Below are positions 1-3,735 of a DNA stretch of 5,451 bases, piece by piece. Every line of letters begins with the position of its first letter. Position 1 is the stretch's first letter. The position numbers and the translations under genes were made by a program. The notes beneath the pieces were generated by a model. It was not told the DNA's origin. It saw only the letters and a list, made by a program, of their open reading frames with translations, and made no database searches. Origin of the DNA: a virus (Duplodnaviria; Heunggongvirae; Uroviricota; Caudoviricetes); the IMG/VR virus record IMGVR_UViG_2728369181_000007. The stretch is one strand, 5' to 3'.

Positions 1-420
1 ATGACGGATTATCAGCCATACAGGAAAGGAACTGTGCTTGCCCCAACTGGACCATGCAATCATCTTCATGTGATTTGTAATGATCCTGTTTATTACCCCG
101 TTAACGATTGTTATTGTGTTTTAGTTGTTAATATTTCTAGTATCAAGGATGGTGTCCCCCACGATCCGTCTTGCGTCTTGAATTCTGGTGATCATCGCTT
201 TATCAAGCATCCAAGTTATGTTGTTTACGCTGAAGCTATAATTTGGCGAGTGGATAACATGGTTAGAAAGCAGCGATCGGGTGAGATTTCTGTTCATGAT
301 GATATGCCAGAAGCTACATTCAATAGAATTCTGGACGGTTTTGATATCTCTGATGAAGTTACGCCAAAGAACCTTAAATTTAAAAATAAATATTGCGTAT
401 CATCTATTGATGATGAGTAA
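1..420 (+). CDS. hypothetical protein, 139 aa, Cys/His-rich, encoded by an AT-rich gene (cargo/moron-like)
   Basis: ATG at 1-3 (window edge, so the true start could lie upstream), TAA at 418-420. It is the only long ORF on either strand across 1-450. Composition is visibly more AT-rich than the prophage operon, with runs such as ttaaatttaaaaataaatatt near the 3' end. Six Cys and six His (e.g. CNHLHVIC, DCYC). No family recognised by eye. Confidence 0.4.
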   Translation: MTDYQPYRKGTVLAPTGPCNHLHVICNDPVYYPVNDCYCVLVVNISSIKDGVPHDPSCVLNSGDHRFIKHPSYVVYAEAIIWRVDNMVRKQRSGEISVHDDMPEATFNRILDGFDISDEVTPKNLKFKNKYCVSSIDDE

Positions 421-459
421 ACAACAGGAATTGTTTCGGTATAACTTCTGGAGTTTTCT

Positions 460-633
460 ATGGAAGATCAAAAAGCAACCAAGCCACAGGTTAAGTTCGA
501 CACAATGAAAGCATTCGTAGGTATGGGTGCTGCTGTTGAAGTTCTGATGAAGGCTGCTCCTAATGCGTTCACTCACGCTACTGTCTCTGGTAAAGAGCAG
601 CAGGGTAAGCTTCGTCGTCTCAAAGCAGCATGA
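460..633 (+). CDS. small hypothetical protein, 57 aa (MEDQKATKPQVKFDTMKAFVGMGAAVEVLMKAAPNAFTHATVSGKEQQGKLRRLKAA)
   Basis: Not in the supplied ORF track (presumably below its length cutoff); translated by hand. GGAG at 450-453 sits 6 nt upstream of ATG 460-462; stop TGA 631-633. Codon choice (ggt, gct, cgt, ctg, gtt, aaa) looks E. coli-adapted and differs from the AT-rich upstream ORF. An intrinsic terminator follows 20 nt downstream. Confidence 0.45.
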   Translation: MEDQKATKPQVKFDTMKAFVGMGAAVEVLMKAAPNAFTHATVSGKEQQGKLRRLKAA

Positions 634-652
634 TCATAGCTGGTGCTTTTTG

Positions 653-678
653 AAAACCCGCCTTCAGGCGGGTTTTTT
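653..678. terminator. Rho-independent terminator hairpin, probably bidirectional, between convergent genes
   Basis: Stem aaaacccgcc (653-662), loop ttca (663-666), stem ggcgggtttt (667-676), with the T-run extending to 678 on the plus strand and an A-run on the other side. It lies between the plus-strand stop at 633 and the minus-strand stop at 681-683. Confidence 0.6.
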
Positions 679-680
679 CT

Positions 681-962
681 TTAGTGATTTTCTTTGCCCT
701 TCTGTTTGACTGTTCTGACCTGTTCCCACTCGATACGTCCTTCTTCTCGCCTTTTGTCTATGTATTCCGCAAGATCCTGAATATTGATGCAACGTTTTGC
801 TTTTTGTGATGTGCCGATGCGATATGTTGGAACGGGCAACTTACAAGCGTTTGCTTTTGCTTCTGCCGTGGCTGGACTCATACCAAAGTACTTTTGGCTA
901 ACTGCTGAGAGTTCAATGTTTGGGGTATTGAATTCAGCCATCAGTAAAAACAAGGTGTTCAT
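681..962 (-). CDS. small excisionase-like / PrtN-like DNA-binding protein, 93 aa
   Basis: Minus-strand ORF with TAA stop at 683-681. Preferred start is ATG at 962-960, preceded by GGAG (revcomp of 968-971) 6 nt upstream; alternative in-frame starts are ATG 974 and GTG 989 (the track's 102-aa form). It is the last gene of the operon, directly after the exonuclease, which is where the excisionase gene torI lies in KpLE1. The family assignment is from memory of similar prophage proteins and is not verified. Confidence 0.5.
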   Translation of the reverse strand: MNTLFLLMAEFNTPNIELSAVSQKYFGMSPATAEAKANACKLPVPTYRIGTSQKAKRCINIQDLAEYIDKRREEGRIEWEQVRTVKQKGKENH

Positions 963-998
963 AATTTTCTCCATCAAAACCGGCTGCACCCGGGAAAA

Positions 999-1571
999 TC
1001 ATAATTCTGTGCTGGTGGCAGGAATTAATTTCTGCCAGATAGCGGAAACATATTTTGCCTGATGACGGGCATCGGCCAGGGCGTTGTGCCGTTCGCCATC
1101 GAAAGGCATGTCCATTTTGGGGTCGAATCCGATGGAACGCCCAAGCGTAACGATCGTGCGTACATCGTGGTCATTCCAGTATGCCCACGGGCAAATTTGT
1201 CCTGCTCGCTCATAAGCTCCACGTAAAATTACGTTGTCGAAGGTGGCCCCGTTACCCCAGACTTTTAAATATTTCGTATTGGCTGCATGCCGGTTAATGA
1301 AATGATTTAGTTCTGAGAGAGCATCGCTGATCGACAAAGTATCATCAATACAGATTGCAGCTCGTGCTTCAGGGCTTTGTTTCAACCACCACAGGATGGT
1401 ATCGCCGTCAGGTGTAGCTCCTTGCCCCATAGCACTTTCCAGGCTAACAACCGTATAGAATTCTTGTCCGATGTCTCCGGTTTCTGGAGTGAAGAACACC
1501 GCGCCAATGGAAACGATCGGTGCATCCTTATTTTTCCCCATCGTCTCAAGGTCGATCATTAAGTTGTTCAT
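999..1571 (-). CDS. DEDDh-type 3'-5' exonuclease (DnaQ/RNase T-like), 190 aa
   Basis: Exo I-like motif MIDLETMG (D-x-E), Exo II-like WGNGATFD, Exo III-like HNALADARHQAKY (H-x4-D). Start is ATG at 1571-1569, which overlaps the upstream gene's TGA stop (minus-strand reading gTGAtg); GTG at 1574 is an alternative. Stop TGA at 1001-999. Confidence 0.75.
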   Translation of the reverse strand: MNNLMIDLETMGKNKDAPIVSIGAVFFTPETGDIGQEFYTVVSLESAMGQGATPDGDTILWWLKQSPEARAAICIDDTLSISDALSELNHFINRHAANTKYLKVWGNGATFDNVILRGAYERAGQICPWAYWNDHDVRTIVTLGRSIGFDPKMDMPFDGERHNALADARHQAKYVSAIWQKLIPATSTEL

Positions 1572-2139: not shown

Positions 2140-2331
2140 CTATTTCACCTTAATCTCAACATTTCGCAGCTTTAGCTCTACTGGCAGGTCTGACTTTCCT
2201 GTTAATGCTAATGCGAGATTTTCTGGAGTAATGAGAGCAGTTATTGTTTTCCCCCTCGCCAGACGAATAATCATTCGTATTTCGCGATCGTCACATGCTC
2301 CCGGTCGAACAATTGATATTTGTCCGTTCAT
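2140..2331 (-). CDS. small hypothetical protein, 63 aa (MNGQISIVRPGACDDREIRMIIRLARGKTITALITPENLALALTGKSDLPVELKLRNVEIKVK)
   Basis: Internal ATG at 2331-2329 of the track ORF 2140..2412, preceded by GGAGAGTGAG, and beginning 1 nt after the upstream gene's stop. The longer 90-aa form would overlap the preceding CDS by 80 nt in another frame. Stop TAG at 2142-2140. No family recognised. Confidence 0.45.
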   Translation of the reverse strand: MNGQISIVRPGACDDREIRMIIRLARGKTITALITPENLALALTGKSDLPVELKLRNVEIKVK

Positions 2332-2332
2332 C

Positions 2333-2860
2333 TCACTCTCCTTTGATGCGAATGCCAGCGGCGCGTGGCACATTAACTTCCACGATGCGCACAGTTGGTT
2401 TGTACATCTCAATCGCAGTCAGCCAGTCAGCTCCTGTCATGCGCTTTTCCGCATCGCCATTAGTCCACTGAACCGGTACACCAATAGCCTTCATCGCGAT
2501 TTCTATTTCCCCGGCAATGGCGCTTTTTCCGCAACCAGTAAAACCAGATACAACGACAAGAACTTCGCCTTTGGCTGGTTTTATTTCCCGTGCTTCCAGT
2601 TCTGCAATACGCTTTTTTGCTGCTTCCAGTTCATCCAGTAATTCCAGCACGGTAGCCGGATTAGCCTTGGCAACAAAATCCCGGACTGGCTTACAATCAA
2701 TCTCCGCAATGGGTTGATACGATGTGTAGCCATGCTGTCTTGTATAACTACCGTGACGAATAACGAAAAAATCACCGTTTATTTTTTTAGCCTGCCACTT
2801 ATCTTCACCGGCTTTCACTGCCGCCTCACGCAGTGCCTGATAGTCAATTTTGTTTGTCAT
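2333..2860 (-). CDS. Ead/Ea22-like prophage protein with coiled-coil segment and a C-terminal Walker A-like motif, 175 aa
   Basis: The N-terminal region (DYQALREAAVKAGEDKW...) and a coiled-coil stretch (LELLDELEAAKKRIAELEARE) resemble Ea22-like proteins. GFTGCGKS fits the Walker A pattern GxxxxGK[ST]. ATG at 2860-2858 overlaps the upstream TGA as ATGA; stop TGA at 2335-2333. Confidence 0.65.
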   Translation of the reverse strand: MTNKIDYQALREAAVKAGEDKWQAKKINGDFFVIRHGSYTRQHGYTSYQPIAEIDCKPVRDFVAKANPATVLELLDELEAAKKRIAELEAREIKPAKGEVLVVVSGFTGCGKSAIAGEIEIAMKAIGVPVQWTNGDAEKRMTGADWLTAIEMYKPTVRIVEVNVPRAAGIRIKGE

Positions 2861-3735
2861 GTAACTACCTCTTCGAATTTCAACTCCAGTTGATCACCCC
2901 AGATTTCACATGACTCTGAACACGAGCCGGTATCGAATCGCCCGGCCTGCACCATCGCCTGATACAAATTCCAGTAGTCGCTGTCGGCATACATTCTGGC
3001 AATCCCTTCAAGACTCAGATGACCACGGTACATAACGTCTTTACCTGTTCTGCGATGACCGTCCCTGACGTGTTGGCCTGTAACCAGTTCATTAAAAACC
3101 CGCATCAGGCCAGGTTCGTCCTTACATGCAAGCCCCAGCTTTTGCGTTGACTTTTTGATGCAGAAAACACAGTTCCCGAGGTGCTCAGGGATAAGTAAAT
3201 CGAACGGCTGTTTACGCCACCACCGGATAACATCCGACTTATCAAAATCTGACAGTTCGGCGAGATACCGGACGCCCGGTTTCGGTTTCAGCCTGCGGGG
3301 TTCGTCTGCACGAATACCCAGCCATGTGATGTAATTCCCTCGCCCAAAATGGTCATCGCAATATTTCGTGAAAGGGGTGAGTTTTAGCCTGTCAGTACAG
3401 AATGCGCCGCCGATGTATGGCGTACCGTACTTTTTAACCATGTCCATAAACGGTTTAAGCACCGGCATTCGCGTCTGAATATCCTTTGGTTCCCATTCCG
3501 TATAACCATTTGGCTGCCCAAGCTCTGGATTTATATCGACCTGCAACACAGTTAGCGGTATGCCCCAGAACTTCACAACCTCCCGAATAAAGCGGTATGT
3601 CAGCGGATGTTCGCAACCGGTATCCATAAAGATGTAGCAGACGTTATTGCCAGCCTTTCTTTGTTCTTCCATCAGGTGAACAAGATATGCAGATGTTCTC
3701 CCGCCAGAAAAACTAACTACATGAGTTATGCACAT
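2857..3735 (-). CDS. PP-loop ATPase, phosphoadenosine phosphosulfate (PAPS) reductase family protein, 292 aa
   Basis: N-terminal PP-loop SFSGGRTS (res 8-15) followed by FMDTG (res 36-40), typical of the PAPS reductase/ATP-sulfurylase-like fold. Two Cys pairs, CVFC (res 189-192) and CSESC (res 272-276). ATG at 3735-3733 overlaps the yfdR 3' end by 10 nt; stop TGA at 2859-2857. Confidence 0.8.
   Translation of the reverse strand: MCITHVVSFSGGRTSAYLVHLMEEQRKAGNNVCYIFMDTGCEHPLTYRFIREVVKFWGIPLTVLQVDINPELGQPNGYTEWEPKDIQTRMPVLKPFMDMVKKYGTPYIGGAFCTDRLKLTPFTKYCDDHFGRGNYITWLGIRADEPRRLKPKPGVRYLAELSDFDKSDVIRWWRKQPFDLLIPEHLGNCVFCIKKSTQKLGLACKDEPGLMRVFNELVTGQHVRDGHRRTGKDVMYRGHLSLEGIARMYADSDYWNLYQAMVQAGRFDTGSCSESCEIWGDQLELKFEEVVT

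Follow-up and report, generated by a model that had tools for sequence, protein, structure and literature searches.

A probable PanA-PanT toxin-antitoxin pair of cluster T6 as exchangeable cargo between attL and the excisionase gene of an Escherichia coli lambdoid prophage

Organization of the locus

We have analyzed two open reading frames (ORFs) that lie on the plus strand at the left end of a 5,451-nucleotide (nt) stretch of viral DNA (IMG/VR record IMGVR_UViG_2728369181_000007; this whole stretch is called the window). Positions 1-1,000 of the window match the E. coli O103 RM8385 chromosome and the induced phage Lys8385Vzw at 100% identity, and the window is part of an E. coli lambdoid prophage. 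The first ORF, at 1-420, is very probably the T6 toxin of a type II PanA/PanT toxin-antitoxin (TA) pair that is carried as swappable prophage cargo; the second, a gene of 57 amino acids (aa), would be merely a co-transcribed leftover. The features of the locus are as follows.

1-420, plus strand: panT, predicted toxin ORF of 139 aa (ORF list); PanT cluster T6, MazF/Kid/CcdB-like fold
1-4, plus strand: ATGA overlap of the toxin start codon (1-3) and the panA TGA stop (2-4), from the annotation and sequence of RM8385 and Lys8385Vzw
-568 to 4, beyond the window edge (5432-6004 of locus L001): panA, predicted antitoxin gene of 190 aa (PF13274)
421-459, plus strand: intergenic spacer, with the right-hand swap boundary at about 447-449 and the Shine-Dalgarno (SD) sequence GGAG of the 57-aa gene at 450-453
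460-633, plus strand: gene of the 57-aa small protein (phrog_2741, E 1e-34)
652-677, folding on both strands and strong on the plus strand: intrinsic terminator hairpin GAAAACCCGCC-TTCA-GGCGGGTTTTT
681-989 (RefSeq 681-962), minus strand: PrtN-family excisionase gene (PF11112, E 4e-23; annotated as excisionase in mEp460)

The original prediction for this DNA, made from its letters alone, described an AT-rich two-gene cassette converging on a minus-strand prophage operon. Its descriptive part was accurate. Both ORFs are present; the 139-aa gene has a GC content of 38.3% (0.31 at third codon positions) against 47.1% in the remaining window, and its product contains exactly the six Cys and six His that had been counted. 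The GGAG site ascribed to the 57-aa ORF is found 6 nt ahead of its ATG, and the remaining genes, from 681 onward, form one minus-strand prophage operon, of which the excisionase gene, with its stop at 681, is the last. The unit itself was drawn too small: the window truncates it, its first gene being the 190-aa Panacea gene upstream, and the 57-aa gene is of separate origin.

The shared bidirectional terminator of the same prediction survives in part. A hairpin does lie between the convergent stops at 633 and 681, and on the plus strand its 11-bp stem is followed by U6CU3 (folding energy -19.3 kcal/mol, z -3.5). Read on the minus strand it folds at -18.1 (z -4.6), with merely 4 U past the GC core, and a consensus terminator scan called it on the plus strand and made no minus-strand call. 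It is clearly an intrinsic terminator on the plus strand only and may act weakly behind the excisionase gene on the other; bidirectional function is plausible but asymmetric.

A Panacea gene is the conserved partner of the 139-aa ORF

Extension of the sequence upstream of position 1, as the original prediction had recommended, revealed panA. Its 190-aa product matches PF13274 (SocA_Panacea) in Pfam with E 2.2e-19, is named 'Panacea domain-containing protein' in RefSeq, and consists of a stand-alone Panacea domain with a tail of about 50 residues; against the NCBIfam SocA equivalog it scores 14 bits, the cutoff being 190. Kurata et al. (2022) looked for PF13274 genes on the same strand and no more than 100 nt from the toxin; here the panA stop overlaps the toxin ATG.

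The same arrangement recurs in other genera. Homologs of the toxin lie directly 3' of a PF13274 gene in Shewanella (in an integrative island), in Vibrio (beside a cI-like repressor) and in Proteus (beside tail-fibre genes). These are different mobile elements with different flanking genes. The two genes overlap by 4 bp in Shewanella and Proteus and are separated by 1 nt in Vibrio, and none of the three loci has a 57-aa gene. A wider scan took one genome per species and covered 28 loci from Gamma-, Beta- and Alphaproteobacteria, using a hidden Markov model derived from four PanAs that Pfam had confirmed. Upstream sequence was sufficient in 26 loci, and in every one of these the end of a PanA homolog coincides with the start of the toxin homolog or closely precedes it, even at about 30% identity in the Alphaproteobacteria. 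Of the 208 E. coli carrier genomes, 206 have both genes. Because the pairing is conserved across elements and genera, the Panacea gene is taken to be the real partner of the 139-aa protein, and the general guess that this prophage end carries TA-type cargo was borne out, with a different partner.

At 90% identity the 139-aa protein clusters with 190-aa Panacea proteins and with an E. coli O121:H19 protein of 232 aa, a 'DUF4065 domain-containing protein'. The mixture is probably an artefact of clustering, or it stems from gene calls that are alternative, or fused, at the ATGA junction.

Start, family and fold of the 139-aa protein

The original prediction allowed for a continuation of the ORF upstream of position 1; RefSeq, on the other hand, starts the protein further in, at GTG-34, which gives a 128-aa product (WP_014640052.1) without 11 conserved residues. 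Conservation points to neither. Codons 1-11 are conserved across genera with synonymous changes only, P6, G10 and L13 are conserved in 24 homologs, and the GTG-34 of RefSeq is GTT, GTA, ATA or ATT in orthologs. The RefSeq start, with the nearby AGGAAAGGA, was rejected on these grounds, and the pattern of substitution indicates that translation begins at ATG-1 and yields 139 aa. A clone built on the RefSeq model could yield a defective toxin.

Neither the 139-aa nor the 57-aa protein has a significant match in Pfam, NCBIfam or PADLOC, and in PHROGs both fall in families of unknown function only. Matches to ICMT and DapC were at chance level and were dismissed. The 139-aa protein belongs to a large family, with 2,707 representatives (50% identity, E ≤ 0.001) that are nearly all stand-alone proteins of about 130 aa. 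Members are found in 9 sequenced temperate phage genomes, the named hosts being Escherichia, Yersinia, Vibrio, Pseudomonas, Klebsiella and Helicobacter, and are rare on plasmids.

The original prediction recognised neither protein, but structure comparison assigns to the 139-aa protein the SH3-like barrel of MazF, Kid and CcdB, and the model is accordingly described as having a MazF/CcdB-type fold; nine MazF/Kid-type structures outscore CcdB. In an alignment of 48 family members (27-44% identity) H21 and D55 do not vary, conservation of C58 and H65 is 90% or higher, and the family-wide conserved core comprises H21, D55, C58, H65, S72, Y76, G113 and S117. Metal binding had been suggested from the six Cys and six His; of these only H21, C58 and H65 are conserved throughout the family and are, together with D55, candidate ligands or catalytic residues, H23, C26 and the others being not conserved.

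Membership of PanT cluster T6

The PanA/PanT systems were defined by Kurata et al. (2022, PNAS; PMC8832971), with ten validated pairs, nine of them new in that study. One of these pairs is from Pseudomonas moraviensis. Its PanT is toxic, is rescued by its own PanA and co-purifies with it in a pull-down, and inhibits incorporation of 35S-Met specifically, not that of thymidine; it has no CDD match, and HHpred predicts a resemblance to the RNases EndoA, PemK and MazF. Dataset S1 of the same paper places this toxin in cluster T6, whose features are a PanA without N-terminal domain, the order antitoxin-then-toxin, and mostly -4 or -1 overlaps (PMC8832971). Pantoea septica LMG 5345, 'Yersiniaceae bacterium 2016Iso4', Proteus vulgaris and Pluralibacter gergoviae are among the T6 entries.

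The toxin of our locus from strain 2016-Iso4 (L016) is 55% identical to the 139-aa protein (E 3e-49), and its exact sequence is WP_101821906.1, a listed T6 entry; on this basis the 139-aa ORF is a T6 PanT, in a cluster with an experimentally validated member. Another locus in our set (L017) is from Pantoea septica LMG 5345, a strain also in the T6 list. The assignment was made through the accession of a homolog because the E. coli accessions WP_014640052 and WP_000458584 gave no match in the papers and supplements searched. The two E. coli entries of Kurata et al. belong to T1 (non-toxic) and T3 (a membrane toxin), and the T6 copy of the E. coli prophage was not among the genomes sampled there. 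Their non-toxic 'E. coli MOD1 mRNase' PanT was considered as a possible match to the 139-aa protein and rejected, since it belongs to cluster T1.

An exchangeable segment between attL and the excisionase gene

The original prediction suspected a variable insertion, and mapping of presence and absence agrees with this. Some part of window 1-1000 is found in 742 E. coli genomes. The panAT pair is present in 208 of 5,426 complete E. coli genomes, compared with 562 for the 57-aa gene, the terminator and the adjacent excisionase end. In 206 genomes neither panAT ORF is disrupted, and conservation is 98-100%.

The boundaries of the variable segment are sharp. A 5' fragment of dusA adjoins attL, marking the integration site, and when prophage and excised phage are compared, the crossover at attL maps inside this fragment, near L001 5168. 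Prophages that carry PanAT and those that carry instead a gene for a 177-aa GNAT-fold protein have the next ~70 nt in common and diverge at about L001 5238. On the right, homology with the prophages of the 177-aa gene resumes exactly at GGAGTTTTCTATG (window 450-462), the SD of the 57-aa gene; BLAST matches to the window begin at 440, 447 or 450. The swapped segment is thus about 1.2 kb (L001 ~5238-6449), and its content is panA and panT only.

Since the integrase gene lies on the far side of attP from the PrtN-type excisionase gene, int and xis come to stand at opposite ends of the prophage, with PanAT between attL and xis; L001 5074-5240 and L002 3880-5431 show this arrangement, the dusA fragment included. 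In enterotoxigenic E. coli (ETEC) H10407 (L042 3833-4867) an otherwise similar PanAT prophage has an extra gene, for a 344-aa 'competence protein CoiA', between the 57-aa gene and the excisionase gene. This insertion and the exchange of PanAT for the GNAT-fold gene make the attL-excisionase slot a cargo hotspot.

Proposed mechanism and alternative interpretations

We think it very probable that the 139-aa ORF is the toxin of a T6 PanA/PanT pair. The ATGA overlap couples panA and panT translationally, and the segment, ~70 nt inside the attL arm of the dusA-integrated prophage, is a self-contained cargo. It would probably be expressed in the lysogen from its own promoter, with transcripts ending at the plus-strand terminator at 652-677, so that the 57-aa gene downstream would only be co-transcribed. 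PanA would bind and neutralise PanT, as the validated T6 member and the PanAT literature suggest. Should PanA be lost or triggered, the freed MazF-fold toxin would block protein synthesis, most likely through cutting of RNA, and the ensuing growth arrest could help to exclude phages, to abort infection or to retain the prophage. The order of the genes, their constant pairing, the fold, the place in T6 and the exchangeable character of the segment are established by the comparisons above; for the E. coli panAT itself, toxicity and neutralisation are presumed from its relatives, and the RNA target, the trigger and the biological role are those that we infer for it.

Several observations weigh against this interpretation. 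A promoter scan upstream of panA gave 3 matches, with 4.8 expected by chance. The 139-aa protein has no Pfam match to PemK_toxin (PF02452), and a single one of 48 family members matches at a chance-level E of 0.11; hhalign against MazF, Kid and EndoA gave a probability of 0.15; and when the family alignment served as a profile against PDB sequences, no MazF was found. The catalytic pair of E. coli MazF is R29/T52. In the 48-sequence alignment neither an Arg nor a Lys reaches 90% conservation at any position, the His/Asp/Cys/His set being kept instead, and a MazF-type signature of Arg plus Thr/Ser appears to be absent from the family. Since no MazF-like catalytic Arg is conserved, the label of RNase derives from the fold and from the inhibition of translation by a single distant relative, which is assigned to the family of the 139-aa protein through the T6 clustering of Kurata et al. 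Likewise an anti-phage role is something that we infer only, because PADLOC has no model for either protein.

Alternatively, the barrel might carry a chemistry other than that of an endoribonuclease. H21, D55, C58 and H65 would then be a zinc site or a Cys-His-Asp catalytic centre, in a toxin still neutralised by PanA, and would act for example in metal-dependent modification of nucleic acids or nucleotides, or in hydrolysis or transfer on a translation factor or a tRNA. The conserved residues and the failure of profile searches and hhalign to find MazF or PemK speak for this, as do the presence of non-RNase toxins such as CcdB in the fold family and the divergent functions that NetFlax reports on similar folds. 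On the other side, the validated T6 member, like MazF, is a specific inhibitor of translation, and catalytic residues vary among toxins of the MazF fold. Kid, for example, uses a His. Moreover, if the secondary-structure elements are simply taken in order, H21 would stand at the start of strand beta-2, in the place of the catalytic Arg of MazF, and S46/S47 at the end of beta-3, in the place of the Thr. We consider a non-RNase activity unlikely, although it deserves more weight than the other alternatives; there is the same limited chance that the T6 PanTs, the 139-aa protein included, have a new active site on the MazF/CcdB barrel with a chemistry undescribed for this fold.

It is considerably less probable that panAT has no present function in E. 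coli, be it as a degenerate or inactive relic or as a regulatory pair devoid of toxicity. In favour of this reading, 8 of the 25 PanAT candidates of Kurata et al. were non-toxic in E. coli, including a prophage-borne T1 pair of E. coli. The intactness and high conservation of both ORFs in 206 genomes nevertheless argue for maintained function, as do the purely synonymous variation of the N-terminal codons across genera, the similar length of the 2,707 family representatives, and the strictly conserved pairing of PanA with PanT. Finally, that PanT is a CcdB-like gyrase poison and not a translation inhibitor can be given very little credence, given the ranking of MazF/Kid-type structures above CcdB and the block of 35S-Met but not of thymidine incorporation by the tested T6 member.

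The 57-aa gene and its GNAT-fold partner

The 57-aa protein has a full-length match to phrog_2741 (E 1e-34), and its 48 homologs are all about 57 aa long. Substitutions between the Hafnia and Enterobacter copies of the gene concentrate at the third codon position (6, 1 and 21 at positions 1, 2 and 3). This pattern identifies the ORF as a real coding gene of a family of unknown function.

The original prediction took this gene for the partner of the 139-aa ORF, for instance as a small antitoxin or immunity protein to a toxin. The arrangement invites such a view: the two genes follow each other on the plus strand at a distance of 39 nt, with a common terminator and a separate SD for the second, and they are contiguous in about 193 of the 208 E. 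coli panAT genomes. The comparative data largely refute it, and we regard a functional 139-aa/57-aa pair as highly improbable. By tblastn no homolog of the 57-aa gene is present in any of 36 non-E. coli loci that carry the toxin family. In E. coli the 57-aa gene is found in 562 genomes, of which 358 have the 177-aa GNAT-fold gene upstream instead; with the 208 genomes that have PanAT these account approximately for the total (562 ~ 358 + 208). In Salmonella, Hafnia and Enterobacter the 57-aa gene is always downstream of a 177-179-aa gene, and in the latter two genera it retains this partner at a quite different phage position. The homology breakpoint falls exactly at the SD of the 57-aa gene, and in H10407 the CoiA-like gene is inserted between the 57-aa gene and xis. 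Joint inheritance of the 139-aa and 57-aa genes across taxa and elements was therefore not found. Absent from the non-E. coli toxin loci, travelling with the GNAT-fold gene, and with the breakpoint at its own SD, the 57-aa gene is not part of the TA pair. Its distribution identifies it as the surviving second gene of a mobile module of a GNAT-fold 177-aa gene and a 57-aa gene, whose first gene was replaced by panAT.

The 177-179-aa partner has no Pfam match and is 65-100% identical across genera. It was recognised as GNAT-fold by structure search only; Pfam, NCBIfam and PDB-sequence searches were negative or spurious, the latter including matches to HIV gp41. The module of the two genes occupies two positions, the attL-excisionase slot and a moron slot between Q/RusA and the lysis genes. 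The 57-aa gene and its partner may constitute a mobile system of two genes not described so far, in competition with PanAT for the prophage slot and present also in the Q-lysis moron slot.

Two further observations concern this module. In three Hafnia loci (L047-L049, ~995-2109) it adjoins a 319-352-aa gene with a RelA_SpoT domain, downstream of the Q antiterminator; this gene could be a toxSAS or CapRel-like defence gene, and the surroundings look like a small defence or moron island. A near-perfect palindrome, CCAATCGACATGATCGATTGG, lies between the 177-aa and 57-aa genes (L040 ~3420-3445, L011 ~2922-2945) and may serve as operator or terminator. The window lacks this palindrome, which was lost in the swap.

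Neighbouring early genes

Beyond the terminator, the minus-strand early-left operon encodes, from 681, the PrtN-like excisionase, an Rv2179c-like 3'-5' exonuclease, a DUF551 protein, an Ead/Ea22 protein, a PAPS-reductase-like protein, an HD phosphohydrolase and a DUF2303 protein. The Ead/Ea22-like gene shares ~80 nt at its 3' end with a 90-aa ORF of the same strand (window 2140-2412 and 2333-2860). Gene content around window 2140-2860 varies among the prophages of RM8385, O157 and mEp460, and several have frameshifted or partial genes. With such variation between related prophages, the operon is a mosaic.

Comparison with known systems

The pair in the window most resembles the validated T6 system of P. 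moraviensis (PMC8832971), with which it shares a Panacea-only PanA, the order antitoxin-then-toxin with a -4 or -1 overlap, and a 'hypothetical protein' toxin of ~130-140 aa with structural similarity to MazF/PemK. The PanA N-terminus, MFCEEKVAQ, also resembles the MIFSEQKVAQ that Kurata et al. restored for PanA of P. moraviensis.

MazEF, Kis-Kid and PemIK (PF02452) differ in several respects. Their toxins have no detectable sequence similarity to the 139-aa protein, which has the His/Asp/Cys/His set and not the Arg/Thr pair of MazF, a longer beta3-beta4 loop and two extra C-terminal helices; the antitoxin here is a Panacea protein, whereas MazE and Kis are of the AbrB or ribbon-helix-helix type. 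CcdAB of the F plasmid also has a different antitoxin family, and CcdB is a gyrase poison, in contrast to the tested T6 toxin with its block of translation. SocAB of Caulobacter, whose SocA is the founding Panacea/DUF4065 antitoxin, likewise has an antitoxin with PF13274, but SocA serves ClpXP as an adaptor for the toxin SocB, whose target is the DNA sliding clamp (type VI), and the toxin folds are unrelated. The type III toxins ToxN, AbiQ and CptN are neutralised by a repeat RNA, unlike the present toxin with its upstream protein antitoxin; no repeat array was seen here, although no dedicated repeat search was made.

Significance

The panAT genes described here belong to the known PanAT family and open no new class of system. 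For genome annotation, the analysis means that about 4% of complete E. coli genomes, O157, O103 and ETEC strains among them, carry under the name 'hypothetical protein', and with a wrong start, what is very probably a PanAT toxin. For prophage biology, it shows the attL-excisionase slot to be a site of mutual replacement between a TA pair and a GNAT-fold module. The locus also provides a T6 PanT model native to E. coli, in which toxicity, the hypothesis of PanA as a 'sensor', and phage exclusion would be testable in the natural host with the inducible phage Lys8385Vzw.

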